Shown here in pieces: positions 2 to 63,825 of a DNA stretch of 64,000 nucleotides (positions are counted from its first letter, which is position 1; each line of letters opens with the position of its first letter). A program made the translations under genes and the position numbers. Source of the stretch: an uncultured Verrucomicrobiae bacterium (GTDB lineage: Bacteria; Verrucomicrobiota; Verrucomicrobiia; Chthoniobacterales; UBA10450); the NCBI GenBank assembly GCA_963726745.1, contig CAVSDR010000003.1:544001-608000 (forward strand), in the 5' to 3' direction. Under the pieces are notes generated by a model. The model saw only the letters and a program-made list of their open reading frames with translations. It did not search any database and was not told the DNA's origin.

Positions 2-1909
2 CTCTCCTTCGCCGGCGGACAGACGCTTTTTTACGACAACTCAAATGCTGGCGCCGGCACATTCACCAACGTCGGCGGCATCTTCGGTCCGCCGGGAACG
101 ATTGAATTTGCCGGCAACTCGAGCGCCGCCAATGGGACTTTCTACGTCACTGTATCCAACCGCGGCGGCCTGCTCAATTTCCGGAACAATGCCAGCGCTG
201 GCCAGGGGCATTTCTTCACGCCCGGCGGTGGCGGCGACGTGAACTTTTATAACTCCAGCACGGCTGCCAACTCGACCTTCAACCTCGCGAGCAACAGCAT
301 CAGCGGGCCCTTCGTTCGCTTCCGCGACCAGAGCAACGCAGGGAACGCCAGCTTCGACGTCAGTCCCAGTGGGAACCTGCAATTCTATGAGACCTCCAGC
401 GCGGCGCAGTCGCACATCGTCCTCCGCGGCTTCGGCGCCGGCCCAGGTGGTGGCGCTTCTCTTTACGTTCTCAGCACCCTCGGCAATTCCTTGGTCGACA
501 TGGAAGGTGCGACAGCTTCTTCCGGAACGCTGAACTCCGGCGGACCGGGCGCGAGCTTCAGCGGCAGCGCGGCCACGGCGGGAGACGCGGTCATCAATGT
601 AAAGGGCGGCACCGCGGCGGGAGCGGCGGGCGCCACCCTCCAGTTTGGCCAGTTCGCGACCGCGGGTAATGCGACGATCACGATCGGTGGCGGCAGCAAC
701 GGCGGCAGCGGCGGATCCGTTCTCTTCTCCGGCTACTACGGCCTCGTCAGCGGCGGGACTTCGCGCATCATTGCCAATGCCGGCGGCACCCTCCAGGTCA
801 GCGGGAACATTCCCAACGGCACGCCGGCGCCGGAAGGCACCTCTTTCGGCTCCATCGAAGGTGCCGGCACTTTCATCCTCGGCAATACCCTCCTCGTCAC
901 CGGCACCAGAAATACGAATACGACCGTCTCCGGCGTGATCACGGACGGCGGCTCAGGATTCAGCGCAGGCGGCATGTTAACCAAAGTCGGCAGCGGCACA
1001 TTCACCCTCAGCGGCCCAAACAGCTACACCGGCCTAACGAAGGTGAATGCCGGCAAACTCATCGTGAACGGCTCTATTCCCGGCGCAGTCCGGGTGGCCA
1101 GCGGCGCAACGCTCGGCGGCAGCGGAAGCATCGGCGGAGCCGTGACGCTTGACCCAGGCGGCATCCTCTCCCCGGGAAACAGCCCGGGAACGATCAGTCT
1201 GGGCTCGCTCGCGCTCGCGGCCGGCAGCAGCCTTCTGATGGAGATCGGCGGGACGACGCCCGGTACGACCTACGATGCGGTCAGCAGCGCGAGTAACATT
1301 TCCCTCGACGGCACCTTGACGATTAGCCTAACGAATGGTTTTACCCCTGCCCCGGGAAACACGTTCAACATCCTGACCGCCGCCGGCACGGTCAGCGGCG
1401 CATTCAGCAATGTCGTCAGCGGTGCGCGCCTGCACGACGCCGACGGGAGCGGCTCTTTCCTGGTCACAGTCAACAGCGGCGGCGTCACCCTCTCCTCGTA
1501 TCTTGGGCCTGCCTCCAATTTCAGCAGCTGGCAAAACGGGCATTTCACACCGCAGCAGCTGAACGACCCAACGATCAGCGGCCCGAACCAAGATCCTGAT
1601 GGGGATGGCGTATCGAACCTGCTCGAATACGCCCTCAACGGCGACCCACTCGACGCTGCCTCAAACAACCGTCCGGTGGAGTCACACGACGCGACTTATT
1701 TTTCGATCATTTACACCCGAGTGCTGGCTGCGAGCGACCTGGATTATCAAGTGCAACAAGCGACCAGTGTTGGTTCCTGGAGCAACGTGACGCCGGTAAA
1801 TCAAATTTTAAGCGACAACGGTTTCGTCCAGGTGATCAAAGCGCAGGTTCCGCGGAGCAATGCCCTCGGCGGAAAACTCTTCCTCCGGCTGAGCGTGACC
1901 AAACTGTGA
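2..1909 (+). CDS. Secreted Gly/Ser/Asn-rich beta-helix protein with autotransporter-associated beta-strand repeat (5'-truncated by window edge)
   Basis: Frame is open from position 2 (LSFAGGQTLFYDNSNAG...), upstream of the ORF-track start at 239. Repeats of FxxxSxAGNA type; LTKVGSGTFTLSGPNSYTGLTKVNAGKL repeat; DPDGDGVSNLLEY Ca-binding-like motif; ends KLFLRLSVTKL. Confidence 0.8.
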   Translation, partial: LSFAGGQTLFYDNSNAGAGTFTNVGGIFGPPGTIEFAGNSSAANGTFYVTVSNRGGLLNFRNNASAGQGHFFTPGGGGDVNFYNSSTAANSTFNLASNSISGPFVRFRDQSNAGNASFDVSPSGNLQFYETSSAAQSHIVLRGFGAGPGGGASLYVLSTLGNSLVDMEGATASSGTLNSGGPGASFSGSAATAGDAVINVKGGTAAGAAGATLQFGQFATAGNATITIGGGSNGGSGGSVLFSGYYGLVSGGTSRIIANAGGTLQVSGNIPNGTPAPEGTSFGSIEGAGTFILGNTLLVTGTRNTNTTVSGVITDGGSGFSAGGMLTKVGSGTFTLSGPNSYTGLTKVNAGKLIVNGSIPGAVRVASGATLGGSGSIGGAVTLDPGGILSPGNSPGTISLGSLALAAGSSLLMEIGGTTPGTTYDAVSSASNISLDGTLTISLTNGFTPAPGNTFNILTAAGTVSGAFSNVVSGARLHDADGSGSFLVTVNSGGVTLSSYLGPASNFSSWQNGHFTPQQLNDPTISGPNQDPDGDGVSNLLEYALNGDPLDAASNNRPVESHDATYFSIIYTRVLAASDLDYQVQQATSVGSWSNVTPVNQILSDNGFVQVIKAQVPRSNALGGKLFLRLSVTKL

Positions 1910-1930
1910 TCCTGTCGGCGCTGCGCGCCG

Positions 1931-3469
1931 CTATTTCACCTTCACGTTTTTGCGCAGGAAAGTTGGGACATCGAGGTCCTGGCCTTCCACGATCGTGGGC
2001 TCGCTTTTCTCGAAGCGGCCGCGAGTGACGCTCTCGAATTGCATTAGCTCCTGCTTGGCCACGGTGCGTTCCGGCTTGGGCGGACGAATCGGGGCCGGGG
2101 CGGGTTTGGTCTTCGGGAGGAGGACGCGCGGCTGCGCGGGCTCCGGCTCGAGCATCGGCGGCGGCTCGAGAGGTGCCGCTTCCACGGGTGGCTCCGGGGC
2201 GGGCTCCACCGTCGGCTGCCTAACGGGTTCTTCCTCGTCCACCGGCTCCGGGAAGGTGGCCTCGATCATCTGCAAGGGCGCTGGCTCCACGGCTTCCTCG
2301 AATTCCAAATTTCCCAGCGGGATTGGTTCCAATTCCGGCTCCGGCCCGGGCTCCAACTCCGGTTCTGTTTCTGTTTCCGGCTCCGGTTCGGGCTCGGGTT
2401 TCGGCTCCGGCGGGAGCTCCAACTGCGGCGTCGGCGGCACCATCTTGCTGGCTAATTTCCGCACGGGCTTCGGCGCGGCCACCACTCCGCCCTCGGCCGC
2501 GAGCGAGCTAATGATCGTGACCGCCATGCGGTTGCCCATGCGGCTATCGACGGCGGTGCCGAAAAAAATCTGCGTCTCGTCGCCCACGTGGCGATTGAGT
2601 TCGCCCATGAGAATCTCCACCTCGGAAAGCGTCATCCCCGGGCCGCCGGCCACATGCACGAGCACGCTGACCGCCTCCTCGAGCATCCGGCCGCGATCCA
2701 TCAACGGGTTCTTGAGCGCTTGGGTGAGTGCGTCGTGCGAGCGGTTGTCGGTCTCGGCTTCGCCGTAACCGAAGAGGCAGCGCGCGTTCGGATTGCGCAG
2801 CGCGGCCAGAAGATCGTCAAAGCCGATTCGCACGAGGCCAGGACGCTGGATAATGCCGGCAATCGCGCGCACGCTCTGCGTGATCGTGACATCCGCCGCA
2901 GCGAAAGCCTGATGCACGCCGGCCTTGGGCGCCACGATGTCGCCCATTTTGTCGTTCTCGAAACAGACGACCGCACTGCAGATCGCCTGCAACTGCGCGA
3001 GCGCCGCCGTGGCCTGCGCGTTGCGCCGTTTGCCCTCGAAACCGAAAGGCATGGTCGCGAAACAAATCACCATCGCGCCATTCTCGCGCGCCATCTCCGC
3101 GATGACCGGGGCTGCGCCCGAGCCGGTCCCGCCGCCCAGGCCCACACAGAGGAAAACCATCCGCGCATCGGCCAGGGCGTGGCGCAGCTCGTCGTTCGCT
3201 TCCCGCGCGGCTTCGTAACCGAGATCAGGATCGCCGCCCGCGCCAAGGCCGCGCGTGACCTCGCGGCCGAGTTGCACTTTGTGCGTCGCGACCGAGCTCG
3301 CGAGCGATTGCACGTCGGTGTTCGCGGCGATCAGGTCGCCCTTCTCCACGCCTTCGAGGACCATGCGATCGAGCACATTCGAGCCGGCGCCGCCTAGCCC
3401 GATGATCTTGATCGGGATGAGGTCGTCGTCTCTTTCCGGCAGCGTGTAATTGCGGTTCAGTTGGATCAT
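1931..3469 (-). CDS. ftsZ: Cell division protein FtsZ with long Pro/Glu-rich linker
   Basis: GLGGAGSN, NTDVQSL, GLGAGG, GGGTGSG tubulin signature, C-terminal DLDVPTFLR core; last gene of dcw cluster. Confidence 0.97.
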   Translation of the reverse strand: MIQLNRNYTLPERDDDLIPIKIIGLGGAGSNVLDRMVLEGVEKGDLIAANTDVQSLASSVATHKVQLGREVTRGLGAGGDPDLGYEAAREANDELRHALADARMVFLCVGLGGGTGSGAAPVIAEMARENGAMVICFATMPFGFEGKRRNAQATAALAQLQAICSAVVCFENDKMGDIVAPKAGVHQAFAAADVTITQSVRAIAGIIQRPGLVRIGFDDLLAALRNPNARCLFGYGEAETDNRSHDALTQALKNPLMDRGRMLEEAVSVLVHVAGGPGMTLSEVEILMGELNRHVGDETQIFFGTAVDSRMGNRMAVTIISSLAAEGGVVAAPKPVRKLASKMVPPTPQLELPPEPKPEPEPEPETETEPELEPGPEPELEPIPLGNLEFEEAVEPAPLQMIEATFPEPVDEEEPVRQPTVEPAPEPPVEAAPLEPPPMLEPEPAQPRVLLPKTKPAPAPIRPPKPERTVAKQELMQFESVTRGRFEKSEPTIVEGQDLDVPTFLRKNVKVK

Positions 3470-3492
3470 TTTCTTGGCTCCGAGTTTTTCCG

Positions 3493-4705
3493 TCAGCGCA
3501 TTCCACTAAACAATTTCCCAAACATCTGGCGCAGGCCGCCGCGCGGCTGGCGATCGCCCTGCACCGCCTGGGCATACTTAATCAAACCGATCGCGGTCGA
3601 GAACTGCGGATTCTCAAACGCGCTTGTGAGGCCGGACATGGTTTGCGCGTGCGCCTTCCGCGCCGGCATCTCGAAAATCTCCTCCGCCAGGTGCTCGATT
3701 CCGTTCAGGTGGCTGCAGCCGCCGGTGATGAAGATTCCTTCGCCGATGTAGTTGATGAAGCCCTCTTCATCGAGCTTCCGCTTGAGCAGCTCAAAGGTCT
3801 CGCGCAGGCGCAGATGGATGATCGTGTTCAAGGTCTCGCGCTCGATTTCCTTGCCCGCAAAACCCGAGTCGTCCTTGAGCGTGACTGTCTCGCCGGGGAG
3901 GCAATTCCCCAAGGTGACGCTGCCCTTCCTCGAGCTTTAATTTCTCCGCGCGCGTCATCGGGATGCGCAGGCCCATGGAGATGTCGTTCGTGATGTGATC
4001 GCCGCCGACCGCGAGGCAGCCGCTCTGCTTGATCGCACCGTCGACATATAAAATGTAGTCCGTCGTCCCGCCGCCGATGTCGATCACAAGCGCGCCGAGA
4101 TTCTTTTGATTCGGGGTTAACACGACCTGCGCGCCGGCGAGCGCGCTAAAGACCACGTCCTCGACATCGAGCGGCAGTTCGCGCACGCAGCGGATGGCGT
4201 TTTGGATGCGCGTGCGCACGCCGTGGATGATGTGGAAATCCGCCTCCAGCCGCTCGCCGAGCATGCCCACGGGATTGAGCACGCCCTCCTGTCCGTCGAC
4301 GTGATAGTGCTGGATAATCGAATGGAGGAAGGTGTTTGCCTGCGGGATGCTGACCTCGCGCGCGTTCAGCTTCACGTCGTCGACATCGGCCTCGTCGATC
4401 TCCTCGCGATCCTCCGGGAGCGTGACCAGGCCGCGATTATTGAAGCTCTGGATGTGCGAGCCGGTGACCGCGAGATAGACACTGCGGATCATCACATCGC
4501 TCTTTTCCTCGGCATCGACCACGGCCTCGTGGACGCACTTCATCGCGGTCTCGAAGTCGACGATCTCGCCCTTGCGGACCCCGCGCGACGGCGCCTGGCC
4601 CACGCCCAGGATCTTGATCGTGCCGTCGGGGCGCCCCTCGCCCACGACCACACAAATCTTGGCCGTGCCGATCTCCAGTCCTACCATCAAGTCGCTGCTT
4701 GCCAT
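3493..4705 (-). CDS. ftsA: Cell division protein FtsA, split by an apparent +1 frameshift at about 3923-3925
   Basis: ORFs 3791..4705 (GLEIGTAKI, VIDIGGGTT) and 3493..3912 (ITGGCS, FSTAIGL, amphipathic C-tail). Removing one G from GAAGGGCAGC joins them as EEGSVTLGNC. Confidence 0.9.
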
Positions 4706-4707
4706 CG

Positions 4708-5790
4708 TTAGTTTTTCCTTCCCCGTTCCACCGGCAGGGCCTTGCGAATCTTCGCCTCCGCGCCGGTTGTTTTCTCTTTGCTCGCCGGCAGCGGACTCCC
4801 CTTCGTCCCCGGATGCACCGGCGTTGCTCGCAAAATTTTCCCGTCATTCTCGGGATCAAAAGTGTCGTCGATCACTTCCGCGGCCGTCCTCGTGAAAGTC
4901 ACGGGAATGTTCCGCTCGACCAGGAGGTTGAGGGTCTCAATTTCGCGCCCGGAATCGTCCGCCCAGACGAGGAACTGCTCGAGGCGCCGGAGTTGATCCT
5001 CGAGATTATCGAAGCCGAAGGTCACGCGCGTGCGGTTCTTGTCCGTGACTACGAGGCAATAGCCCTTGGAAGCATCGATCGCGCGCACTTGGAAACGCGT
5101 CTGCATAAAGCTGCCCATGCTCAGGCGCAGCAGCTCGAGCGCAGCTTTGACTTCGAAGGATTCGATCCGCTTGCCGGCGCTCAAGGTCTCGTTCGCTGCA
5201 CCCGTGATCACCGGCAGGCCGAGGTATTCCGGGAGGAGTTTTTTCTCGCGCATGAGCGCGCCGCGCGCGTCCACCAGGAAGGATTCGTCGGAGGTGAAAG
5301 GGTCGGCTAATTCTTTCCCGCTGGTGATCCAGGCGACGGGCTTCCGCTCGGTGATGACGATGTTGATTTCGCCCGGGAGATTGCGCGTCACCTGCACGTC
5401 TTCCGCCTGCGGCAGCGCCTGCAGCTGGTCGTGCACCCGCGCGAGGTTCACGCTGAAAATGTTCTCGCCCTCGACCAGCTCGGCGGTGCGCAGGATTTGA
5501 TCGCGCTGCAGGGTGCCGTCGGTCCGCACTTCGATCTTGCTCAAGCGGTAATCGGGGTTGTCGAAGAAGAGGCGCTTCGCGCCAAAGCGCGCGCCGTAAA
5601 CCAGCCCGCCGACGACGAGGAAGGCGAGCAGGATCTTCGACGTGATCACGAGGATGCGCTTGTTCCGGTATTGCGTCGCCTTGTGCGAGCGCACCTTCAC
5701 GTCGAGCAAATGCTGCTGCCGGCGCTGGCGGGTGTTGCTCGCGCGGCGCTGGTTGCGAATGCGGCCACCGGTCTCCTGCATCAGGCTCAT
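4708..5790 (-). CDS. ftsQ: Cell division protein FtsQ/DivIB
   Basis: Basic N-tail, single TM helix, POTRA-like region, ITERKPVAW; lies between ddl and ftsA; start placed at the ATG overlapping the ddl stop. Confidence 0.9.
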   Translation of the reverse strand: MSLMQETGGRIRNQRRASNTRQRRQQHLLDVKVRSHKATQYRNKRILVITSKILLAFLVVGGLVYGARFGAKRLFFDNPDYRLSKIEVRTDGTLQRDQILRTAELVEGENIFSVNLARVHDQLQALPQAEDVQVTRNLPGEINIVITERKPVAWITSGKELADPFTSDESFLVDARGALMREKKLLPEYLGLPVITGAANETLSAGKRIESFEVKAALELLRLSMGSFMQTRFQVRAIDASKGYCLVVTDKNRTRVTFGFDNLEDQLRRLEQFLVWADDSGREIETLNLLVERNIPVTFTRTAAEVIDDTFDPENDGKILRATPVHPGTKGSPLPASKEKTTGAEAKIRKALPVERGRKN

Positions 5791-6713
5791 CGCGCCCTCC
5801 TTTGCGCGGCGGACAACTCGATGATGCGGGCACAGAGTTGCGCGTAACCGATGCCCGCGGCCGCAGCCGCTTCCGGGAGCAGGCTCGCCTCGGTCATCCC
5901 GGGAATGGTGTTGATCTCGAGCACGCTCGGGGCGCCGTCTTCCGGGAGCATCACATCGACGCGCGAATAGACTTTGAGGCCTAACGAGCGATGCGCCCGC
6001 AGCGCCAGCTCCTGGATTGCCTGCGTCTGCTCTTCCGGCAGATGCGCCGGGCACACATGCTGGGCGGCGCCGCCCGCGCCGGGATTGAGGAAAGGATACT
6101 TGTTCGTGAAATCGTAGAAGCCGCCCTTCGGGATGATCTCGATGATCGGGAGCGCCTGCTCCCCGAGCACGCCGACGGTCAGCTCGCGGCCGGGGACAAA
6201 CTTCTCGATCAGGATGCGCTCGTCGTATTGCGCCGCTTCCTCGAGATGCTGCGCGAGCGCGCCGCTTTCCTTCACGATGTAAACCCCCACGGTCGAACCT
6301 TGGCGCGGCGCCTTGATCACCAGCGGCAAAGAAAGTGTCGGCTGTTCGCCGGGGCGCACCACCTCCCACTCCGGCGTGGCGACCTGGCCGGCATCGAATT
6401 TTTCCTTCGAAAGAATCTTGTCGAACGCGATCCGGCTCTCCTCCACCCCTTCGCCGGTGTAATCGATTCCGCGATCTTCCAGGATCTGCTGCACCTGGCC
6501 GTCCTCGCCGAAAGTCCCGTGGAGCGCGATGAAGGCCAGCTCGGTCCCGGCGGGCAACTCAAAGTCCGCCCCGCGCACATCCACCTCGCTCACTTCCGCG
6601 CCTAACGAGCGCAATGCCCGGGCCACGCCGGCGCCGGTGGCGAGCGAGACCTCGCGTTCCGCGCCCGGTCCGCCTTTCAAGACGGCGATCTTTTTGCCTG
6701 CCACTTCGCTCAC
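5787..6713 (-). CDS. ddl: D-alanine--D-alanine ligase
   Basis: GGPGAEREVSL, ALHGTFGEDG, GSTVGV, FYDFTNKY, LEINTIPG. Confidence 0.97.
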   Translation of the reverse strand: MSEVAGKKIAVLKGGPGAEREVSLATGAGVARALRSLGAEVSEVDVRGADFELPAGTELAFIALHGTFGEDGQVQQILEDRGIDYTGEGVEESRIAFDKILSKEKFDAGQVATPEWEVVRPGEQPTLSLPLVIKAPRQGSTVGVYIVKESGALAQHLEEAAQYDERILIEKFVPGRELTVGVLGEQALPIIEIIPKGGFYDFTNKYPFLNPGAGGAAQHVCPAHLPEEQTQAIQELALRAHRSLGLKVYSRVDVMLPEDGAPSVLEINTIPGMTEASLLPEAAAAAGIGYAQLCARIIELSAAQRRAR

Positions 6714-9007
6714 GCTTCCTCCCCCACGATTTGCACTTCGGTTTCCAATTCGATCCCGCGCTGCTCGCGCGCGGCGGTCTTGATCCGGTGGATCAACTCC
6801 AGCACCTCCACTGCGGTCGCGCCGCCGTCGTTGACGATGAAATTTCCGTGCACTTCCGAGACGCGCGCCGGGCCGACGGCGCTGTTCTTTAGTCCCAATT
6901 CGTCGACTAATTTTCCCGCGGGGCAGGCGCCCGGGTTTTTGAAAATGCAGCCCGCGCTCGACGCCGCCGGCTGACTCGTGCGGCGCTTGTTTTGCGACTC
7001 GTCCAGCCGGCGCAGGATCTCGTCCTTCGAAGCCGGCAAGCCGCGGAAGACCGCGGAGACCGCGTAGTTTTTCTCCAGCGCCGGAACGTGCCGGTAGTGC
7101 ACCTCGAGTTCGGCCGCGGGCTTGATTTCCGCCTGGCCTTCGGCGTTGAGGAATCGCATCGAGACGACGTTGTCAAAAGTCTGCACGCCCATCGCGCCGG
7201 CGTTCATCCGCAGCGCGCCACCGACTTCGCCCGGGATGCCTTCCATCCATTCGAGCCCGCCGAGGCCGGCGGCTTTTCCGGCGTAGGCCACCTGCTTCAG
7301 TTTCGCGCCCACGCCGGCGGTGATCTCGTTGCCTAAAACCGTGATCCGCTCGAATTCGCCGCCTGCCGGATGCACGACCACGCCGCGAATGCCGCCGTCG
7401 CGCACGAGCAAATTCGAGCCGCGACCGATGACGAAGAGCGGCAGATTTTCCCGCCGGCAATAGCGAATGATCTCGGCGAACGCGCGCTCGTCGCGCGGCT
7501 CCACCCAGAATTGCGCCGGGCCGCCGACGCGCAAGGTGGTGTGCTTTGCCAGCGGCTCGTAAAGCCGGACGGCGCCTTCCGGGCCTACGATTTCGCGGAG
7601 TTGCTCGACGATCACGAGGTCGGCCGCGAGGAGCGAAAGCTGTTCATGGATGTTGCCCGCGCCCAGGCTGAGCACGAGGTCGCCGTCCTCGAGGTAATTC
7701 CCGAGGTCGCAGTGGAGTTGGCTCAGCCGCGGCTGGAATGTGACCTGCCGATGGCCGCGCGCCGCGATCTCATCCACGATCGTTTGCCCGGTGATCCCCG
7801 GAATGGGCGCTTCGCTCGCCGGGTAAACGTCGGCCACGAAGACGCGGTCGGCCTTTTCGAAAGCGGCGCCAAATTCCTTGCGCAGCGCTTTCGTGCGCGA
7901 GTAACGATGCGGCTGGAACATCGCGAGCACACGGTTGCGCCCGGCGGAACGTGCGGTCGCGAGCGTGGCGCGGATCTCGGTAGGATGGTGCGCGTAATCG
8001 TCCACCAAGAGATAGCGCGGGCTGGAATACTTGATCTCGAAACGCCGGCGCGCGTGCTGGAATTGGCCTAACGAGCTGACGATTTTCTCGAAGGGAACGC
8101 CCAGTTCGGTCGCGAGGGCGATCACGCCGAGCGCATTGCTCACGTTGTGCCGCCCGGGGACGTTCAGGACCGCTTCGCCGAGCTTTTCGCCGCGGCGAAA
8201 GACGCAGAAGACCGAGGCGAAATCGCGCAGCTCGATATCGGCGGCAAAATAGTCAGCACCTTCACGCAGCCCGTAGGAGACGACGCGCTCGCGGCCGCCG
8301 CAGAGGCGCGTGGCGTTGGCGTCATCCGCGCAGTAGAAAACCGTCCCGCTGGTCTGCGCGCAAAGTTGCGTGAAGACGGCATCGATCGCCGCGAGATCCT
8401 GGTAAAAGTCGAGATGCTCTTCCTCGATGTTCAGGATGAGCGCGTGCTCCGGATGGAAGAAGCGCAGGGTCCCATCGCTCTCGTCGCCTTCGGCGATGAA
8501 ATATTCGCCGCGCGGATTCCAATGCGCGTTCGAGCCCAGGATCGGAATCTCCGCGCCGACGTAATGTGACGGGTGCATCCCGCCTTCGCGGAAAACATGC
8601 GCCGCCATCGAGGAGGTGGTGGTCTTGCCGTGCATCCCCGCGATCACGATCCCGCGTTTACCCAGCATGATCGCAGCCAGCGCCTCGGCCCGGCGGATGG
8701 TCATGGTGCCGTTGGCGTGCGCCGCTGCGAGGATCGGGTTGTCCTTTTTGATCGCGGAAGAATAGACAACGAGCTCGGCATCGGCCGCGTCTTCCGCGAC
8801 GTGTTTCACGTGAAAGCGCAGGCCGAGACGCTGCAGGCGCGCGGTCTCCATCGAGCCCACGCGATCCGAGCCGCTGACCTGGTGACCGAGCTCGAGCAAG
8901 AGCGCGGCGATGCCGCTCATCCCGCTCCCGGCCACGCCTAACAAGTGGATGCGATGCCGCTCCTGCGTGAGCATTTTCTGGAGGGCAACGTCAGCGCCGG
9001 GCTTCAT
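6710..9007 (-). CDS. murC: Fused UDP-N-acetylmuramate--L-alanine ligase / UDP-N-acetylenolpyruvoylglucosamine reductase (MurC-MurB)
   Basis: N-part GVAGSGMS, GMHGKTTT, EGDESD, DDYAHHP, FQPHRYSR; C-part HTTLRVGGPA, GRGSNLL, MNAGA, SAGCIFKNP, HGNFIVN; one open frame. Confidence 0.95.
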   Translation of the reverse strand: MKPGADVALQKMLTQERHRIHLLGVAGSGMSGIAALLLELGHQVSGSDRVGSMETARLQRLGLRFHVKHVAEDAADAELVVYSSAIKKDNPILAAAHANGTMTIRRAEALAAIMLGKRGIVIAGMHGKTTTSSMAAHVFREGGMHPSHYVGAEIPILGSNAHWNPRGEYFIAEGDESDGTLRFFHPEHALILNIEEEHLDFYQDLAAIDAVFTQLCAQTSGTVFYCADDANATRLCGGRERVVSYGLREGADYFAADIELRDFASVFCVFRRGEKLGEAVLNVPGRHNVSNALGVIALATELGVPFEKIVSSLGQFQHARRRFEIKYSSPRYLLVDDYAHHPTEIRATLATARSAGRNRVLAMFQPHRYSRTKALRKEFGAAFEKADRVFVADVYPASEAPIPGITGQTIVDEIAARGHRQVTFQPRLSQLHCDLGNYLEDGDLVLSLGAGNIHEQLSLLAADLVIVEQLREIVGPEGAVRLYEPLAKHTTLRVGGPAQFWVEPRDERAFAEIIRYCRRENLPLFVIGRGSNLLVRDGGIRGVVVHPAGGEFERITVLGNEITAGVGAKLKQVAYAGKAAGLGGLEWMEGIPGEVGGALRMNAGAMGVQTFDNVVSMRFLNAEGQAEIKPAAELEVHYRHVPALEKNYAVSAVFRGLPASKDEILRRLDESQNKRRTSQPAASSAGCIFKNPGACPAGKLVDELGLKNSAVGPARVSEVHGNFIVNDGGATAVEVLELIHRIKTAAREQRGIELETEVQIVGEEA

Positions 9008-10089
9008 GCGTTGGTATATCGCTCCATGGTATCCGCGACAAGCGCAGCGGCGTTTTTTGGCGCGAGGCGCGCGCTCTTTTCCGCCATCTGCCGGCGGCGC
9101 GGCTCGTCCTCGAGTAATTCGCGAATGGTGCGCGCGAGCGCGTCGCCCGCGAGATCGGCTTCACGCACGAGCAGCGCCGCCTCGGCGCGGGCGAAAATCT
9201 CGGCGTTGCGCGTCTGGTGATCGTCGGCCGCGTAGGGAAACGGGATCAAGATTGAGGCGAGTGAAAAGGCCGCCAATTCCGTGAGGCTGGCCGCGCCGGA
9301 GCGGGCGATCGCGAAGTCGGCCGCGCTGTAGACTTCCTCCATTCGATGATGAAAAGCGGCCACGAAGGCGGGGATTTTTTCGCGCTGATAATTATCCGCC
9401 AGGAGACGTTCGTCGCGCGCGCCCGTGAGGTGGATCACCTGCAGCGGCACGCCCTGAAGCGCGGGGAGCGCGCGGATCATCGCCTGGTTGATTCCGGTCG
9501 CGCCCTGGCTCCCGCCCATGACCAAAAGCGTCGGCAAATTCTCCTCCAGGCCAAGCCGGCGGCGCGCTTCGCTGCGCTCGATCCGCTGGAGATCGGTGCG
9601 CACCGGCGTGCCGGTAAATTCCGTGCGCACTTTCGGGAAAAAGGGCGCGCATTCGGCGAAGCCAAGCAGGACCGCGCGGACCATGCGCGCGGTCAGGCGA
9701 TTGGCCTTTCCGGGCACGGCGTTCGACTCGTGGATGAAGGTGGGAATCTTGCGCATCCGCCCGGCGAGCACCGGCGCGGTGGAAGTGAAGCCGCCCATGC
9801 CGAGGACAACGTGGGGTTGAAATTGCCGGTAGATTTGGCGGCAGCGCGTGAGGCTTTCGTGGAAGCGCTGGAGAAAGCGGACGATCGCGGGCGAGAAGGG
9901 CGAAGGCAGGCCCACCGTGGGCAGCTTTTCGAAGCGGAACTCCGGATGCTGCGAGACCGCGAGCGAGTCGATTTCCTTCTCGGAAATGAAGAGCAGCACC
10001 TCGTGGCCGCGCGCGCGCAGGACCTCCGCGACCGCCAGGCCGGGAAAGAGATGGCCGCCGGTGCCGCCGCATGCAATGACTGCGTTCAT
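9004..10089 (-). CDS. murG: Lipid II GlcNAc transferase MurG
   Basis: GGTGGHLFP, HESNAVPGKANR, GGSQGA, RSGAAS, DHQTRNA. Confidence 0.97.
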   Translation of the reverse strand: MNAVIACGGTGGHLFPGLAVAEVLRARGHEVLLFISEKEIDSLAVSQHPEFRFEKLPTVGLPSPFSPAIVRFLQRFHESLTRCRQIYRQFQPHVVLGMGGFTSTAPVLAGRMRKIPTFIHESNAVPGKANRLTARMVRAVLLGFAECAPFFPKVRTEFTGTPVRTDLQRIERSEARRRLGLEENLPTLLVMGGSQGATGINQAMIRALPALQGVPLQVIHLTGARDERLLADNYQREKIPAFVAAFHHRMEEVYSAADFAIARSGAASLTELAAFSLASILIPFPYAADDHQTRNAEIFARAEAALLVREADLAGDALARTIRELLEDEPRRRQMAEKSARLAPKNAAALVADTMERYTNA

Positions 10090-10091
10090 CG

Positions 10092-11237: not shown

Positions 11238-11250
11238 GCGAAACGGCTGG

Positions 11251-11775
11251 CTATTTCTTCGCTTTCGCCTTGGCGGGAATGATCAGTTTCTGGCCGATCT
11301 GGAGCTTCCGGGGATCGTCGATATGATTGACCGAAAGCAGCTCGGACTCGGAAACCTTGAGCTTCTTCGCGATCTTCACCGGGTTGTCGCCTTTCGCCAC
11401 CGTGTAGGTGTTTGCGCTCTCGTTGGCGACCGGGAGCGCGCGCGGGATCGCGCTCTCCTCTTCGCCCTTCGCCGCGGAGGCGGCGACCGCGCCGGCCGGG
11501 GTGCTGTCAGTTTTCGCAGCCGGCGTGCTCGCGGCGACGGCGGCCGGCGGGAAAGCGCCCTGCCGGCTCTTGATCGTGTTAAAGGCGATGATCCCCGCCA
11601 CGGCGACGACATGCAGGATGAGCACGATCAAAAGCGCGCGCGAAAGCTTCATGTTCGGCTCCGCCATTTCCTCGAAGTCGGCATCGTCATTTCCCGCGAA
11701 ACGACGAGCGGTGGAAGCGCGGAGTTTTTTCTTCGGACGACTGAAGACGGCGAGGGTGAATTTCGGGATTTTCAT
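11251..11775 (-). CDS. Membrane-anchored LysM-domain protein in dcw cluster
   Basis: Basic N-tail, one TM helix (ALLIVLILHVVAVAGIIAF), Ala-rich linker, LysM (YTVAKGDNPVKIAKK...LQIGQKLIIP); ATG overlaps murD stop. Confidence 0.88.
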   Translation of the reverse strand: MKIPKFTLAVFSRPKKKLRASTARRFAGNDDADFEEMAEPNMKLSRALLIVLILHVVAVAGIIAFNTIKSRQGAFPPAAVAASTPAAKTDSTPAGAVAASAAKGEEESAIPRALPVANESANTYTVAKGDNPVKIAKKLKVSESELLSVNHIDDPRKLQIGQKLIIPAKAKAKK

Positions 11776-53843: not shown

Positions 53844-53864
53844 CGACACGAAAGAAAATCTCTC

Positions 53865-54668: not shown

Positions 54669-57145
54669 GCGACGCCGCGGTCACCGAGAAGCCTCCGCTG
54701 CCTGAGGGCGAGCTGACCGCAGCCCCGCCGGCGGCGCGCGCGGTCTATGAAAAATTAGCCGACGCCTTGAGCGAGCCCGTGGCGCGGCAGGTCAACGCCA
54801 AGGCCGAGCGCCTGATGCGCGACCTCGGGATCACCTACGACCAATATGGCGAGCAGGCCGGCGACGCGATCGTGCCCTTCGACAGTTTTCCGCGCGTCCT
54901 GGAAACGGCGGAATGGGACCGCCTGACCCGCGGCCTCTCGCAGCGGCTCACAATCTGGAACGCGTTTTTCCGCGACATCTACGACGGCCAGGAAGTGCTC
55001 AAGGCCGGCGTGATTCCCTTCGAGTTCGTCTACGGCGACCCGCATTACCTCCGTGGTTCCGTGGGCGTGAAAGTGCCGGCTAATATCTATGTGCACGTGG
55101 CTGCCTTCGACCTCGCGCGCGACGCTCGCGGCGGCTGGACGGTGATCGACGATTACGTCTCGCGGCCGATGGGCGCGAGCTACGCGCTCCAGGCGCGGGC
55201 CGTTCTCAGCCAGGCGCGCCCGGAGCTTTTCACGCTCGCCGAGGTCGCCTCGGTCAGTGGCTACCCGGCGGAGTTGCTCGCGCTGCTCCGCGGCTGCGCG
55301 CAATCCGGCTCCTCCGAGCCGCGGGTGGTCGCGCTCACCTCGCGCGATGAATCGCATGCCTATTACGAGGACAGTTTTCTCGCGCGGCAAATGGGCATCC
55401 CGCTGGTCGTCGGGAGCGATCTCGTGGTTCTCTACGGGCGCGTTTATTACAAAACCATCGAAGGCCTCGAGCCGATCGATGTGATCTACCGGCGCACCGG
55501 CGACTCCGGGATTGATCCGGTGGCGCACGACAACACCAGCGGCGGCATTCCCGGTCTGATGTCTTGCGTGCGCAAGGGCACCGTCGCAATCGCGAACGCC
55601 ATCGGCACCGGCCTGGGCGACAACCGCGCGCTTGCCGCTTATCTCCCGCGGCTCGCGCGTTTCTATCTCAACCAACCGCTCGAGCTGCCGGTGATCCCGC
55701 GCCTGCTCTGCATCGATCCCGATCAATGCCAGGAAGTGCTGGATGATTTACGCAGCTACTTCATCGCCACGGTCGCGACCGGCCCGGGCCAGCGCGTCTG
55801 GCGCACGGCCGAGATGAGCGACGAGGAAATTGCCACTCTGCACACCGAAATTGCCAGCCATCCCGCGCGCTTCGTGGCCGAGGCGCACGCGCCCGCCAAC
55901 ACCATGCCGACGGCCAACGGCGGCCTGCGCCACGCCGGGCTGCGCGTTTTTACCCTCGGCGGCCGCGCGCTCCCGGAGCATCCATGTGCTCTCACCCGCG
56001 TGGCCGCGGACCCGGATTCGCGCGTCATCTCCACCGGGTTTGGCGGCGGGATCAAGGACACCTGGATCTTGCGCGGCGCGCAACCGGAGAGCCTGCCGGC
56101 TAACGAGTCGTTCTCCATTCAGGGCCGGCGGCTCAGCTTAGGCAGCCGCACGGCGGAAAGTCTCTATTGGATGGGGCGCTACGCCGAGCGCGCGGAAAAC
56201 ACTACCCGCATCGTCAAGGTGCTGCAGACCATCCGCGCGCAAGGCCACGCCCTGGGCGACGACCACAGCTGGAACCCGCTCTGGGAAGCGCTCGCCCGCG
56301 CCACCGGGCACGTGAGTAATTTCTTCAAAAAGTCAGCCGCGAAACAGCGCAGCGTCACCTCTTACCTGCTGCTCGACCGGAGCAATAAAACTTCCGTCAT
56401 CGGCTGCATCGAGCATTGCCGGGCCAATGCCTTGACCACCCGCGAATCGGTCGCGCCGGAAGTCTGGCTCGCGCTCAACCGCACCCGCTCGCTCCTGGTC
56501 GAGCGGCTTGCCCGCCCGGAAGAATCGGCCGACGCGGCCGCGCTCGAAAGCGCCATCGTCCTGGAGGATTCGATCCTCAACCAACTCAACGCCGTCTCCG
56601 GCGCGGTCCAGAAGCACATGCTGCGCGACAACGCCTGGCAGTTTTGGAATCTTGGGGTGCACCTCGAGCGCGCGGTCACGGTCGTGCTCGTGATGCGGCA
56701 GGTCTTCCTCAAGCGCCAAAACGAAGCCCTCCCCGCGCAGCAAATAGACAGCAACCTGGAGGCGCTCCTGCGGATGCTTTCGTCGCTCTACGCCTATCGC
56801 AGTCGCTTCCAGACGCGCCCGACCCTGCGCAATGTCGCGACCATGCTCCTGCAGGATGTACAAGTGCCGTACTCGCTCTTCTTTTGCGTCGAGCGCATCG
56901 ACGCCACGCTCGGCGCGGTTTTCCACGGCTCGACCTCGGACGCAACCAGCCCGGCGCGGCTGGCGGAGCAGTTAAAGTTCGACGCCAAATTTCTCGAGGT
57001 GGATCGCTTCTTCGAGGCCGATGCCAAAGGCGAGCGCGCCGACCTCGGGCGGGTGCTCGAGAGTTTCGAGGATCGCCTGGGCACGCTTTCCACCGCGATC
57101 TCCGATCACTATCTCTACCACCAGGCGATCAATATCCTGCGCTAG
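54665..57145 (+). CDS. Fused circularly permuted ATP-grasp (degenerate) plus alpha-E protein
   Basis: N-part paralogous to 51347..52813 (GITY, DVIYRR, GGGIKDTW); C-part SRTAESLYWMGRYAERAE, LERA. Confidence 0.88.
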   Translation: MSDAAVTEKPPLPEGELTAAPPAARAVYEKLADALSEPVARQVNAKAERLMRDLGITYDQYGEQAGDAIVPFDSFPRVLETAEWDRLTRGLSQRLTIWNAFFRDIYDGQEVLKAGVIPFEFVYGDPHYLRGSVGVKVPANIYVHVAAFDLARDARGGWTVIDDYVSRPMGASYALQARAVLSQARPELFTLAEVASVSGYPAELLALLRGCAQSGSSEPRVVALTSRDESHAYYEDSFLARQMGIPLVVGSDLVVLYGRVYYKTIEGLEPIDVIYRRTGDSGIDPVAHDNTSGGIPGLMSCVRKGTVAIANAIGTGLGDNRALAAYLPRLARFYLNQPLELPVIPRLLCIDPDQCQEVLDDLRSYFIATVATGPGQRVWRTAEMSDEEIATLHTEIASHPARFVAEAHAPANTMPTANGGLRHAGLRVFTLGGRALPEHPCALTRVAADPDSRVISTGFGGGIKDTWILRGAQPESLPANESFSIQGRRLSLGSRTAESLYWMGRYAERAENTTRIVKVLQTIRAQGHALGDDHSWNPLWEALARATGHVSNFFKKSAAKQRSVTSYLLLDRSNKTSVIGCIEHCRANALTTRESVAPEVWLALNRTRSLLVERLARPEESADAAALESAIVLEDSILNQLNAVSGAVQKHMLRDNAWQFWNLGVHLERAVTVVLVMRQVFLKRQNEALPAQQIDSNLEALLRMLSSLYAYRSRFQTRPTLRNVATMLLQDVQVPYSLFFCVERIDATLGAVFHGSTSDATSPARLAEQLKFDAKFLEVDRFFEADAKGERADLGRVLESFEDRLGTLSTAISDHYLYHQAINILR

Positions 57146-57153
57146 AACCTGCC

Positions 57154-58044
57154 GTGTATTTCCACATCGAACACACCACCGAGTACACCTACCCGGAGGC
57201 GGCCACGGAAGCATTCAGCGAGTTGCGCCTGCGCCCGCGCGAGTCCGGCCGGCAATTCGTGACCGAGCACAGCACCTTCATCCAGCCGCAGGTGCCGGTG
57301 GAATCGTACGTCGATTACTTCGGCAACTACGTGGAGACGATCTCGATTCCCTTCCGCCACACGAACCTGCTCGTGCGCTCCGTCTCCGCGGTCGAGACCC
57401 GCGAACAGGTCGACGCGCTCAGCGGCGTGGATCTGTCGATCAGCGAAGCGCGCCAGCTTTACCACCCGCTTCGGCGCGAGCTTTTCGATTTTCTCCAGCC
57501 GTCCCACTTCATCTCCTTCACCACCGAGATCGAGGAAATGGCGCGCGAACTCCTTCCGCCGGGCGCGCCGTTTGCCCAGAGCTTGCAGGATTTAAACAAC
57601 TACATCTTCGAGAACTTTCGCTACGAGCCGGGCGTAACCACTGCGCGCACCACGGTGGCGGAGTTCTTCGAGCACCAACGCGGCGTTTGCCAGGATTTCG
57701 CGCATCTCATGATCAGCGTTTGCCGCTGCGCGGGCTTGCCGGCGCGCTACGTGAGCGGCTATGTCGAAAGCGATCTGCCCTCGGAAAATGGCGAGCCCCC
57801 ACCAGACGCGGCCTTGATCGGGAGCGCCGCGAGCCACGCCTGGGTCGAGGTCTTTTCGCCGAACAATCACTGGGTCGGGATGGACCCGACGAACAACGTT
57901 CTCGAGGGCGAGCGCCACATCCAGATCGGACTCGGGCGCGACTATCACGACGTCCCGCCGCTCTCGGGCGTCTTCAAGGGCCGCAAGCACCAGATCCTGA
58001 AGGTGGGCGTGCGCGTCTTGCGCACCCAGGTGCTGCCGGAATAG
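57154..58044 (+). CDS. Transglutaminase family protein with N-terminal domain
   Basis: HTTEYTY, DYFGN, GVCQDFAH, ARYVSGY, SHAWVE, DPTN, GRDY; start placed at GTG 57154. Confidence 0.9.
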   Translation: MYFHIEHTTEYTYPEAATEAFSELRLRPRESGRQFVTEHSTFIQPQVPVESYVDYFGNYVETISIPFRHTNLLVRSVSAVETREQVDALSGVDLSISEARQLYHPLRRELFDFLQPSHFISFTTEIEEMARELLPPGAPFAQSLQDLNNYIFENFRYEPGVTTARTTVAEFFEHQRGVCQDFAHLMISVCRCAGLPARYVSGYVESDLPSENGEPPPDAALIGSAASHAWVEVFSPNNHWVGMDPTNNVLEGERHIQIGLGRDYHDVPPLSGVFKGRKHQILKVGVRVLRTQVLPE

Positions 58045-58075
58045 CCGGCAGGATCATTGCTGCGCCTAACGAGTG

Positions 58076-58834
58076 CTAAGACTTGGGCGGGGCCGCGGCG
58101 CCGGCAGCCGGAGCCGGCTCAGCCGCGGCGCCACCAGGCAGCATCGCGTCCGCGGGAATCGCGTTCAGCGTGTCCGCATGCAAGGTGGCGTCCTGGCCGG
58201 CCATCTCCTTGCGCAACGCGCCGATGCTTTCCTTCGCGACCGCATCCGCCTTGTTGCTCCAGGCGCTGCGGATGTAGGTGAGCACGTCGGCTATTTTCTG
58301 GTCGTTGAGCGTTTTCTCCCACGCCTGCATGACCGCCGAGCCGTAGGGCTGGCCTTTGACCACGATCGGACCTTCAAGGCCCTTAAGCAGAATCATGCCC
58401 AAGCGACGCGTCCCCCCGGTCACGTATTCCGAACCGTCGAGCGGCGGATATTGTCCGGCAATGCCGAGGCCATTCGCCTGGTGGCAGGTGGCGCAGTTGG
58501 CCATGAAAACTTTCTTGCCGCGATCTGCAGGCGACAACTCCGCTGCCGCGCCGCCGCCCGCGCCTCCGCCGGCCGCGATCTTGGCCTGCGGAGCGTTGCC
58601 GAAATCCAAACTGCTGCCGCTAAACCCGCCGGAGAACCGGCCGAGGTAGGCGCCGCCAAAAAAGACCGCGAGCCCATAAATGCCGATGAGCCAGATGGAG
58701 AGCGGTTCGAGGCCGACGCGCGGCTCGGTCTTCTCCCGTTGGATCGCGGCGTGCACCTGCTGCACGTCTTCGGTTTCGCCGTAGTCCATTCCCTGGCGGC
58801 GAAGTTCTTCGGGTGATGGAGTGCGCTCGTTCAT
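58076..58834 (-). CDS. Membrane-anchored monoheme cytochrome c
   Basis: TM helix, Gly/Ala linker, CATCH, YPPL, axial Met in AVMQAW. Confidence 0.9.
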   Translation of the reverse strand: MNERTPSPEELRRQGMDYGETEDVQQVHAAIQREKTEPRVGLEPLSIWLIGIYGLAVFFGGAYLGRFSGGFSGSSLDFGNAPQAKIAAGGGAGGGAAAELSPADRGKKVFMANCATCHQANGLGIAGQYPPLDGSEYVTGGTRRLGMILLKGLEGPIVVKGQPYGSAVMQAWEKTLNDQKIADVLTYIRSAWSNKADAVAKESIGALRKEMAGQDATLHADTLNAIPADAMLPGGAAAEPAPAAGAAAPPKS

Positions 58835-59701
58835 TTGGCAGCGGCGGGTGCGGCGGCGGCGGCAGGAGCAGCCGGGCCGGCTTTTACTTCCGCGAGCGGA
58901 TGAGTCTGATCAAGGGACATGAGGTAGGCGACAAGGCACTGCGCGTCGTATGTGGGTACGATCTCAAATTCCTCGGGCGCGTTGCCACTCGTTAGGCCAA
59001 GGGCGTTATGATCGCGCTGCCCGCTGATGCGGCGCTTCTCGTAGAGGAAGCGATACGACGGCATGTTCGAATCCTCCACCAGGCTGCGCGGGTTGTAGAG
59101 ATGGCGATGGTGCCAGGCCGCGGAGTAAGCCGCGGGCGTGCCGTCCTTGGCGATGACCGGGGCAGGCTCAGGCGCCGCAGGAGCCACCGCAGGGGAGGCC
59201 ACGGGAACCGCAGGAGCGGCAGCAACCGCGGGGGCCGTCGCCGCACCAGGTGCCGGTGCCGGCGCACCCGGAGCCGGAGCGGCGGGAGCAGCACCCGGAG
59301 CGGAGCGGAGCCGGAGCGGCAGCGGCCTCGGCTTCCAAGGGCGCGCGCTTGCCGACGTTCGAAAGATCGGGACCCATGCGGGCTTTCCCGAGTAAGACCG
59401 GCTGATCGAAAATGTAATCCCGCGGAGCGCTCCGACGTTCGCCCCACTTCCGCTCGATGTCGGAGGCGATGTAATCCGGACGAACTTGCTGGCTATGGCA
59501 GTAGAAGCAGCCATTTGCCACGTAGACCTGGCGGCCGCGCTCGGCCATGCCGGACTTCGGCATCGGGTAAATGTCGGTGCCCTCCTCGTCCATCTGCGGA
59601 TTGAGGTTCCCGATCTGCGCGTTCGGAATAAGGATCAGGCCAGTCCACGAAAAGAGGAACGTGCCGAAGATGCCGAAGAAGAGTGGTGCGAAACCTTTCA
59701 T
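58831..59701 (-). CDS. CcoO/FixO-like monoheme cytochrome c with an apparent frameshift at about 59295-59315
   Basis: GRQVYVANGCFYCHSQQVR and GPDLSNVG in one frame; WHHRHLYNPR and SNMPSY in another; the break lies in a GCTCCG repeat; ATG overlaps the ccoN-like stop. Confidence 0.82.
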
Positions 59702-61909: not shown

Positions 61910-63112
61910 TTAGTTCTGGATGCGCAGGGATTCGATGAGGCGCGGATCACGCAGCGGGAAGAGCGAACTCTTGGTGATCAAGCGCAGGAAAACGAAGACG
62001 AGCGTGCCGCCGATGCCAAGCAGCGGGGTGAAATCCCACAGGCTTACATGCACCCCAGTGCGATGCAGCTCCGGCAGAATAACGACATACATGTCGACCA
62101 TCTGCATGAAGACGATCCAGCAGGCGACAAGGACGAGCTTATCCGGCTTTTTCTTGGTCGCGCGCAGCAAGAGGATGGCAAACGGCAGGAAGAAGCGCCC
62201 GATAACCAACGAGAGGCTGAGCAGATTCCACGACTCGGTATTGCGCAGGATGAAGTAGTCAGTCTCCTCCGGGATGTTCGCATACCAGATAAGCATGTAC
62301 TGGCTGAACCCGATGTAGGCCCAGAAGACACTGAAGGCCAGCATCCACTTACCCATGATGTGGTAATGCTCGATCGTGATCGTCTCGCGCAAATAGCCAG
62401 CCTTATGGAGCAGCCGGGTCACGATCACCAAAAGCGACATCGAGCTGCCCGCGGCACCGGCAAAGATATAGACGCCCCACATGGTGGAGAACCATTTGTA
62501 GTTCAGGCTCGCGAGCCAGTCGTAGGCGCCGAAGGTGAGCGAAATCCCGAAAAGCGGCAGGCAAACAAACGCCATCTTCCGCATCGTGAGCGTCTTCGCC
62601 GGGCTGCCGTCCTTGTCCTGGGCAATGGAGATTTTCCGGTAGAGAAAGGCGGCTAACGAGAAGTAGGTGAAAAAGAACACCGCGCGAATGAGCCAGAACG
62701 GGAGGTTCAGGTAAGCGCGCTTGGCGTCGAGCAAGTGATCGCCGCCGCGCGGGATCACCATCCACTCGTAGAGATGGGTCCGCAGGAGGACGACCGGGAT
62801 GAAGAAGATCGCCATCACCGGCAGGAGGAGGGCGATGTTCTCAAGTTGCCGCCTAACGACCACGGACCACTCGGCATCGACCGCGTGGTGCACCAGGATC
62901 CAGAAATAGCAACCGGCGCAAAGGGTGAAGAAAAAGGCAAACCCAAAGAGCCAGGAGTAAGCCATCTGCGCCGGGTTTATCAGCATCCCGACAACGCTGA
63001 GTGCCAGCCCGAGGAGCGCGCACAGACCAGCAATCATCGACACGCCGCCGAAGCGGTTGCGATCAAAGTATTCGCCTTCCGGCGTGGGCATGACGTGGGC
63101 TCTCTCGCTCAT
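61910..63112 (-). CDS. actF: Alternative complex III subunit ActF
   Basis: Polytopic; AEWSVVVRR, YDWLASL, WFST, FSQYMLIWYANIPEET, DPRL. Confidence 0.87.
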   Translation of the reverse strand: MSERAHVMPTPEGEYFDRNRFGGVSMIAGLCALLGLALSVVGMLINPAQMAYSWLFGFAFFFTLCAGCYFWILVHHAVDAEWSVVVRRQLENIALLLPVMAIFFIPVVLLRTHLYEWMVIPRGGDHLLDAKRAYLNLPFWLIRAVFFFTYFSLAAFLYRKISIAQDKDGSPAKTLTMRKMAFVCLPLFGISLTFGAYDWLASLNYKWFSTMWGVYIFAGAAGSSMSLLVIVTRLLHKAGYLRETITIEHYHIMGKWMLAFSVFWAYIGFSQYMLIWYANIPEETDYFILRNTESWNLLSLSLVIGRFFLPFAILLLRATKKKPDKLVLVACWIVFMQMVDMYVVILPELHRTGVHVSLWDFTPLLGIGGTLVFVFLRLITKSSLFPLRDPRLIESLRIQN

Positions 63113-63825
63113 TTCTTCTCCAATAAGGCTTGAGCGTCCGGCGGCACATCCGCGGCGGTGGCGTTCTGGCTGCGTTGCAAGGCGCGCAGGTAGGCGATGA
63201 TCGCCCAGCGGTCCGGCACGGTCACGTTCGGCCCGTAGGCAAACATGGTGTTCTTGCCGTGCGTGATGGTGTTGAAGATCTCGCCGTCGGCCATTTTGCG
63301 GATGCGCTCATCTTGCAGGCTAACGACCGTGGCCAGGCCGTATTGCTTGGTGATGCCGTTGCCGGCCGCGCTCGCACCGTGGCAGATCGCGCAGTTGATG
63401 TTGAATCGCTGCTCACCGCGCAGCATCAACTCCGGCGTGACTGGAACCGGAATTCCCGTGCCCCATTGGTCGCCCATCTTGCCGGTGTTCACGTAATCCG
63501 AACCGACGCTGAAAGCGACCGCGCTCCCGCGCTCGGACGATCCGGGAATCGGCGTGCCCGCAGGCAAAGCCGGAGCGCCGGGACTCACGGTCGCGCCCGT
63601 CTTCGGCATGTCGTAGCCGATCGGGACCGTCCCATCGATCGGTGGGCGCATTGCGCGTTCATCGGCGTAGAAATTCGACGACGCTTGCGCGCGCAGCTTT
63701 GGCTGGCGAACCATGTCCGGGAAAATTTCCGTGGGCTCGGCGCGGTGATGTTGTCCGCGGAAACCAAGGATCGCGACCATCGCGACGCCGGTGAGGGCAA
63801 AGATGAGGAAGAAAGCGCGCAACAT
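63109..63825 (-). CDS. actE: Alternative complex III monoheme cytochrome c ActE
   Basis: FPDMVRQPK, RPPIDGTVP, CAICH, DRWAIIAY. Confidence 0.85.
   Translation of the reverse strand: MLRAFFLIFALTGVAMVAILGFRGQHHRAEPTEIFPDMVRQPKLRAQASSNFYADERAMRPPIDGTVPIGYDMPKTGATVSPGAPALPAGTPIPGSSERGSAVAFSVGSDYVNTGKMGDQWGTGIPVPVTPELMLRGEQRFNINCAICHGASAAGNGITKQYGLATVVSLQDERIRKMADGEIFNTITHGKNTMFAYGPNVTVPDRWAIIAYLRALQRSQNATAADVPPDAQALLEKK

Follow-up and report, generated by a model that had tools for sequence, protein, structure and literature searches.

Highly iterated sequence words in a Chthoniobacterales family, one of which shares its core with integron attachment sites

The 64,000-nucleotide stretch analysed here (the window; contig CAVSDR010000003.1, positions 544,001 to 608,000, or G000:C3:544001-608000, where G, C and L denote genomes, contigs and loci) belongs to the genome of an uncultured Verrucomicrobiae bacterium of the order Chthoniobacterales (3.41 Mb, 7 contigs, 94.7% complete), and carries many copies of a non-palindromic word, motif 1, whose core is the 7-mer CTAACGA and whose full form is the 10-mer GCCTAACGAG. 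Motif 1 is written throughout this genome in place of habitual codons and usual amino acids; it is accompanied by a second word (motif 2, SAWNKYGYYGNCTAWW), while a third word (AAGATCGACA) is iterated in related genera. These words represent a real and strong DNA-level signal system, which is apparently undescribed: no published report of them was found in a search covering the 7-mer, uptake sequences, competence, motifs and integrons in Verrucomicrobia, Udaeobacter and Chthoniobacterales, with supplementary motif tables outside its scope, and the Chthoniobacterales-integron literature found concerns beta-lactamases. The original prediction, made from the window, described motif 1 only and missed motif 2, the self-avoidance of the copies, the turnover of motifs across the family and the identity of the motif 1 core with that of integron attachment (att) sites.

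The enrichment of motif 1 holds across the genome, with 2025 copies of the 7-mer and 820 of the 10-mer distributed over all seven contigs. The 23 plus-strand and 10 minus-strand core coordinates given in the original prediction were all exact, its list of them, offered as a minimum, proved complete, and the 12 window copies of the 10-mer (11 plus, one minus) were borne out. Its G+C content of 65% was too high (63.0% measured), and its expectation of about 4 and about 0.15 copies became 2.9 (7-mer) and 0.09 (10-mer) under an order-3 Markov model, with the enrichment left standing. The four stop codons and the intergenic copy attributed to the motif (Table 1) agree with our own gene calls, which are crude (2984 genes, 86% coding, some genes missed) and are used throughout. 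Under a per-gene synonymous codon shuffle of all called coding sequences (20 shuffles; dicodons not preserved), the enrichment persisted: CTAACGA occurs 612 times in sense and 979 times in antisense orientation, where the shuffles average 68 and 62 copies (at most 82 and 69), a 9- to 16-fold excess, and the 10-mer 243 and 395 times against 5 and 4. A reversed control word was also 1.8-fold over its own shuffle null.

Motif matrices were obtained by expectation-maximization with a frame-aware background (a flat background drifts into codon periodicity for motif 2). For motif 1 the genome-wide matrix reads Y N G C C T A A C G A G W S S W, with about 18 bits and about 1750-1820 sites. Its flank preferences are unchanged where the flank is intergenic, a class that is itself contaminated because the gene caller misses genes, and no covariation was found in the flanks. 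Motif 1 overrides both codon habits and amino acids. The tripeptide Ser-Leu-Gly is written TCG TTA GGC in 449 of 763 cases, where codon usage predicts 4.2, and occupancy in the remaining usable frames reaches 230/544, 220/335 and 75/441. The 7-mer holds 179 of 881 TAA stops and 125 of 1059 TAG stops, and 41% of TTA and ATA codons fall in motif 1 or 2. The proposal that a DNA-level signal, rather than protein sequence, accounts for the motif is thus supported by the synonymous shuffle, by codon choice at fixed peptides and by the lack of covariation. The core is all-or-none, with one-off variants at T, A, A and C observed/expected at 129/134, 86/88, 30/45 and 9/17, while change is tolerated at the flanks and at the core G. 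The notion that motif 1 is a relic in decay, superseded by motif 2, was rejected, since core one-offs stand at background.

Comparison among relatives showed that the copies arise in place via point substitution. The 13 genes of the division and cell wall (dcw) cluster carry seven motif 1 sites in this genome; in 80 orthologous dcw loci, six of the seven are without a nearby gap, and the seventh has a gap in one locus only. The motif often changes the usual peptide at these sites, turning SVA, SLP or ALG into SLG. In 13 motif-rich loci and this genome, motif codons match the motif-poor consensus in 214 of 366 cases (58%), and flanks in 703 of 972 (72%). Occupancy in 56 motif-poor dcw loci is 47/1896 against 33 expected, near chance except at the site in ddl (window 6602). 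Of 67 aligned orthologues, 43 have the 7-mer at this site, and 25 of these come from the 47 motif-poor loci that span the position. Between relatives at 74-86% identity, motif sites are 40-54% identical and same-frame flanks 13-19%, in pairs that are not independent.

The placement of motif 1 is strand-blind and even. The strand ratio of 23:10 in the window is local only, the genome-wide counts being 1034 and 991. With replichores assigned from GC skew on five contigs, the leading strand has 906 copies and the lagging strand 966 (48% leading), whereas the FtsK orienting polar sequence (KOPS), in the form we take it to have, is distributed 243 to 64 (79%) in the same genome. Like Chi and KOPS, motif 1 is short, non-palindromic and over-represented; it lacks their polarity and is therefore not a Chi/KOPS-like site, one of the roles the original prediction had proposed. 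Its density at origin and terminus equals the genome mean, and it climbs with local G+C content from 0.55-fold to 1.35-fold across octiles; low-G+C polysaccharide islands are poor in motif 1, although these islands were chosen for low counts and the octile trend is the unbiased part.

Copies of motif 1 avoid one another. At distances of 25-250 bp, 143 pairs were counted against 284 +/- 16 in 500 jitter nulls; the deficit appears in all three orientations and is gone by 300-500 bp, and three control words show no comparable close-pair deficit. The same saturation is visible at fixed peptides: of 168 Ser-Leu-[GAVDE] tripeptides lying less than 100 bp from another copy, 19 are encoded by the motif, against 49 of 237 at 100-200 bp and 27-33% farther away. 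Saturation is motif-specific. No helical phasing (10.5 bp) was found between neighbouring copies, and in 100-kb samples of relatives the self-avoidance data are noisy.

Motif 2 has the matrix S A W N K Y G Y Y G N C T A W W T, which carries 17.8 bits, and about 3550-3600 sites genome-wide; strict copies number 939, against 3 for the reversed control. In the window, 29 plus-strand and 38 minus-strand sites have a matrix posterior above 0.5, and the strict copies are listed in Table 1. Motif 2 is partly symmetric, shows no strand skew and no covariation, and also avoids itself (573 pairs against 821 +/- 28). Motifs 1 and 2 are mutually indifferent, with pairs at 1.07-1.21 of expectation up to 400 bp and flat occupancy.

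Dense iteration of motif 1 is patchy within one family of Chthoniobacterales, several genera of which carry it. The nearest relatives by MurG, labelled Chthoniobacterales, Spartobacteria, Verrucomicrobiota and Ca. Udaeobacter, probably form one family, UBA10450, with this genome. The 10-mer occurs 6-1749 times across 150 family genomes and 0-14 times in 16 genomes from other families of the order, and the 9-mer of motif 1 never exceeds 18 copies in any of 298 phylum genomes outside the family; the low counts in motif-poor genomes are partly attC sites. A clear rise in motif 2 is confined, among the 150 family genomes, to G046 (172; an unpublished genome), with a weak one in G015 (38). The third word emerged from samples of 12 relatives and reaches 4653 copies in one genome and about 1600 per Mb, in G045, G066, G090, G107, G122 and others, with G066 carrying it together with dense motif 1. 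When each of 36 genera is represented by its first-listed genome, as in all genus-level tests here, motif 1 reaches a density of at least 100 per Mb in nine genera and the third word in 13, with both in one and neither in 15. Further words in G098 (TAGAGCA) and G005 were discarded, as they are, or resemble, local tandem repeats, and the apparent dialect of G098 is largely an attC array. The sample of G144 (L041-L045) holds a dispersed repeat of about 20 bases ending GGCTACAGC, with 11 copies per 100 kb, which may be like a repetitive extragenic palindrome or be another word. None of 58 loci with one 14-mer was clearly a motif-rich viral contig, which is a weak test, and public reads yielded one run (share 0.12) with fragments only.

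Table 1. Motif copies and motif-supplied features in the window
Feature	Position	Strand	Remark
Motif 1 core, starts	1034, 1328, 5981, 6602, 8068, 12515, 15285, 17100, 26937, 32149, 32524, 42944	+	
Motif 1 core, further starts	44160, 44606, 46118, 49803, 52721, 53840, 56100, 58066, 62653, 62853, 63320	+	
Motif 1 core, span of plus copies	1034..63326	+	n=23
Motif 1 core (TCGTTAG on plus), starts	4705, 13747, 18212, 22275, 23988, 24684, 26380, 43417, 52292, 58989	-	n=10
Motif 1 core, span of minus copies	4705..58995	-	
ftsQ TAA stop within motif 1	4705..4711	-	
ftsI TAG stop within motif 1	17100..17106	+	gene on minus
TAG stop of gene 42944-43597 within motif 1	42944..42950	+	gene on minus
TAA stop of gene 52806-53843 within motif 1	53840..53846	+	
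Full 10-mer, intergenic	58064..58073	+	
ddl motif 1 site, Ser-Leu-Gly as TCG TTA GGC	6600..6609	+	deeply conserved
Motif 2, strict, starts	2441, 6896, 7322, 31701, 35883, 43370, 55069	+	span 2441..55084
Motif 2, strict, left ends	8248, 10881, 15358, 16772, 23612, 24479, 39726, 40280, 45096, 52198, 54754	-	span 8248..54769

The core of integron att sites (attI R box and attC right end) has the consensus GTTRRRY. Read on the opposite strand, motif 1 is CTCGTTAG-RY, and this sequence forms the right end of the attC sites of this family, which read GCTSATCTTGTTCTCGTTAG-RY. Of 68 matches, a few of them duplicates owing to overlapping loci, at least 94% have CTCG and 99% have TTAG. Beside intI, all 15 distinct attI sites (17 rows, 22 loci examined) end in CTCG followed by TTAG, so that the invariant 7-mer with its adjoining C is the family attI/attC crossover sequence. 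Besides this genome, 18 of 21 family genomes show a strict attC-end pattern, which misses variants, against 3 of 179 genomes in other families of the order. This genome holds an array at C6 ~736.6-745.3 kb (L242) with 14 attC sites, an attI at its head and no integrase, as well as two more attI-like sites with single cassettes and a degraded intI beside a broken attC (C3:632363, C4:149608 and C2 ~58700). We judge a coincidence of motif 1 and the integron core unlikely.

Any explanation requires a strand-blind force that favours gain of the exact word, levels off over a few hundred bases and acts on each word separately. The best reading, held tentatively, is that the words are uptake-sequence-like self-tags fixed by biased DNA exchange. 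A sequence-specific protein would read motif 1 as a double-stranded word, the favouring step would probably be DNA uptake, and the range of about 300 bp may reflect the size of the exchanged piece. Copies arise where they stand through point substitution and would then be favoured, with environmental fragments bearing the word preferentially taken up, protected or recombined, and the benefit would saturate at one copy per about 300-400 bp. Motif-bearing alleles could thus spread despite some cost to codon use and amino acids, and motif 2 in this genome and the third word in other genera would be tags of separate, independent readers. This self-tag reading is supported by the lack of replichore bias, the even density at origin and terminus, the permissive stop codons, the departure of motif codons from the usual amino acids, the site conservation, the G+C trend and the saturation, and further because lineage dialects exist and most competence genes are present. 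DNA uptake sequences (DUS) and uptake signal sequences (USS) are reported to occupy permissive positions, to be scarce in recently acquired DNA and to form dialects (PMC2397512, PMC2817400, PMC3630211).

Motif 1 resembles the DUS of Neisseriaceae (with ComP and dialects) and the USS of Pasteurellaceae in being non-palindromic, about 10 bp long and present at 0.3-1 per kb on both strands, over-represented without replichore bias, used in all usable frames and at permissive positions, scarce in foreign or acquired DNA, divided into dialects and accompanied by most competence genes. Unlike them, it occurs in another phylum with another sequence, lacks inverted terminator pairs, ComP and a canonical ComEA, has a short avoidance range, and belongs to a set of two or three unrelated words that coexist and saturate independently. 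The signal looks like an uptake sequence at the genomic level, yet differs from DUS and USS in its terminators and in the receptor, no co-varying one (ComP or a ComN-like pilin) having appeared among the candidates tried.

Several observations weigh against the self-tag reading. Inverted motif 1 pairs within 40 bp number 6 against 19.9 expected; of the two signs that the original prediction had named for an uptake sequence, the absence of strand skew was found and the inverted terminator pairs are missing, while about half of DUES are reported to sit in terminators (10.1101/2025.10.24.684340). ComP is absent, with only a sub-threshold match to a pilin N-terminus, which the Atlas places with generic pilins, and ComEA is over the cut-off in 0 of 151 family genomes. 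Fusions of a staphylococcal nuclease (SNase) with a helix-hairpin-helix (HhH) domain show no association with motif density (p=0.62, 36 genera). The DUF7305 (PilV/W/X-like) cassette was rejected as receptor: the query had no match in motif-rich G013, G024 and G148 or in G046 and did match in motif-poor genomes. Solo pilins were likewise dropped, none being specific to both motif 2 genomes among 30 of 65 loci fetched. Motif 1 also shows no excess of core one-off variants, and motifs 1 and 2 should avoid each other if either suffices for the same uptake step, which they do not. No literature report of competence in this family was found, and uptake by itself leaves the identity with the integron core unexplained.

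The competence inventory of this genome includes ComEC, DprA, ComM, PilT, 16 prepilins and three secretins; ComEC is present in 142 of 151 family genomes without association with motif density. Matches to ComEA below the cut-off occur in 76 of 151 genomes, and four of five scanned are SNase-HhH fusions. In many relatives the SNase-fold protein is fused to a ComEA-type HhH, while in this genome it is unfused, and ComEA-like sequence exists only as an SNase protein without HhH plus a short HhH remnant. This secreted SNase-fold protein (G000:C4:17233-17907; L275:3233-3907, minus; see also L267, L268 and L274) occurs in 92 of 151 family genomes. Two paralogous three-gene pilin-like cassettes end in a DUF7305 protein (window 40383-42936, plus, and G000:C6:623578-626133); one lies near dprA, and relatives have up to nine matches per genome. 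Glycosylation-type membrane genes at G000:C5:155144-158683 surround a tandem set of major-pilin-like genes, one of which is apparently a frameshifted duplicate, and in the window at 25928-31644 (minus) one cluster holds a PilB-like ATPase, MshEN proteins, a roadblock-domain protein and a pair that we take to be MglA/MglB-like. A 101-aa protein at window 37048-37353 (plus) has a weak winged-helix (TrmB) match and is a possible DNA binder. None of the candidates tried emerged as a reader protein, most proteins being outside the comparison, and site clusters adjoining a candidate regulator showed nothing telling.

One rather unlikely alternative ties the reader to the integron, with motif 1 as the double-stranded site of the family integrase, a derivative of it or a host factor serving attI and attC, which would fix the word by binding, decoying or conversion in attC-by-genome recombination; the integron core could also have been turned into a chromosome-wide self-tag by an uptake or protection reader tuned to cassette ends, with further readers and words gained and lost between genera, a possibility we also consider doubtful. 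The shared core, the concentration of this att type in the same family and the remains of integrons in this genome speak for such a link, as does a probable attI in G028, a genome of another family (L217:1444-1520), in which motif 1 is followed by two motif 2 matches in opposite orientation. However, att sites make up only 21 of the 2025 copies, and 99% of copies are without a partner box or hairpin. The commonest att ending (A after TTAG, 59%) is not iterated: TCGTTAGAT occurs seven times, all in attC sites of the array, against 1312 copies of TCGTTAGGC, so that this genome iterates the GC-ending variant only, and the flank preferences of motif 1 differ from those of att sites. The integron integrase is over the cut-off in 88 of 151 family genomes, but not in this 94.7% complete genome, which has XerC/XerD-type recombinases only, nor in motif-rich G024 and G089; G063 possesses one yet has nine motif copies only, and integrase presence shows no association with motif 1 density (p=0.18, 36 genera). 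Motif 2 scores low on most family attI arms, and the third word has no clear att match. Genomic insertion sites of IntI1 (attG) are reported to show only a GWT consensus, and insertions there disrupt genes (10.1101/2022.09.11.507474).

Chromosome coating or organisation, in which each word is bound by a cytoplasmic protein spreading over or protecting about 300 bp, with selection for even cover, also seems unlikely to us, to about the same degree. Separate saturation of the two motifs would fit two proteins with separate jobs, avoidance is independent of orientation, chromosomal density is uniform, and motif 2 is graded, partly symmetric and about 18 bp long, as for a dimeric binder; a chromosome role has also been argued for the highly iterated palindrome HIP1 (PMC5861425). 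The lack of 10.5-bp phasing and of an origin or terminus domain speaks against coating, and a candidate protein was not found. Moreover, a density range of more than 100-fold within the family, with whole motifs coming and going between genera, is hard to reconcile with a housekeeping role.

An improbable explanation is a repair ratchet after Elhai's model of HIP1, in which an enzyme marks the core, repair favours the gaining strand, and gain stops within the repair tract. An all-or-none core, graded flanks and saturation near sites are predictions of that model (PMC4390886), and MutS and MutL are present (by regular expression). HIP1 (GCGATCGC, of cyanobacteria) is likewise hyper-abundant, with a sharp core and softer ends, located in codons and conserved between relatives. 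Unlike HIP1, motif 1 is not a palindrome, has graded flanks over 10-18 bp, turns over strongly between genera and has no cognate methylase found; the core C shows no surplus of C-to-T variants, and two motifs sharing one repair system should avoid each other, for which no avoidance was seen. An orphan N6/N4 methylase (G000:C3:981293-982039; L238:5293-6039; PDB matches 8urk, 9c3u and CcrM) is present in 141 of 151 family genomes at 67-78% identity irrespective of the motif, without a link to density, leaving the HIP1-like, methylation-driven motif suggested in the original prediction unsupported as regards a methylase core. GTAC, depleted to 0.16 of expectation in this genome, could be the target of this methylase; the other methylases found are a C5 enzyme, encoded in a restriction-like island, and two type I fragments.

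A Chi/KOPS-like polar site, a XerCD half-site, an RNA hairpin, a mobile-element scar or a codon artefact is highly improbable, since the likeness is superficial (non-palindromic form, resemblance to a tyrosine-recombinase half-site) and motif 1 shows no polarity, no flank covariation, hardly any alignment gaps and an enrichment that survives the shuffle. XerC/XerD were rejected as readers, as the arms of the dif candidate (G000:C2:305114-305141) are unlike motifs 1 and 2; this site, which we take to resemble dif, lies at the GC-skew maximum, where the last plus-strand KOPS run gives way to the first minus-strand one, and a search with the consensus as we assume it gave no match. Mechanisms other than all of these seem quite improbable.

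Uptake sequences have been described from two proteobacterial families and HIP1 from cyanobacteria, and a soil family of Verrucomicrobiota is now seen to carry at least three such words, which rewrite codons, stops and amino acids of essential genes. Since the words vary more than 100-fold between genera and can coexist, this family offers a natural experiment in which to look for the reader, and the core shared with integrons provides a concrete biochemical lead. If uptake is the cause, the words would point to selective gene exchange in a dominant uncultured soil lineage.

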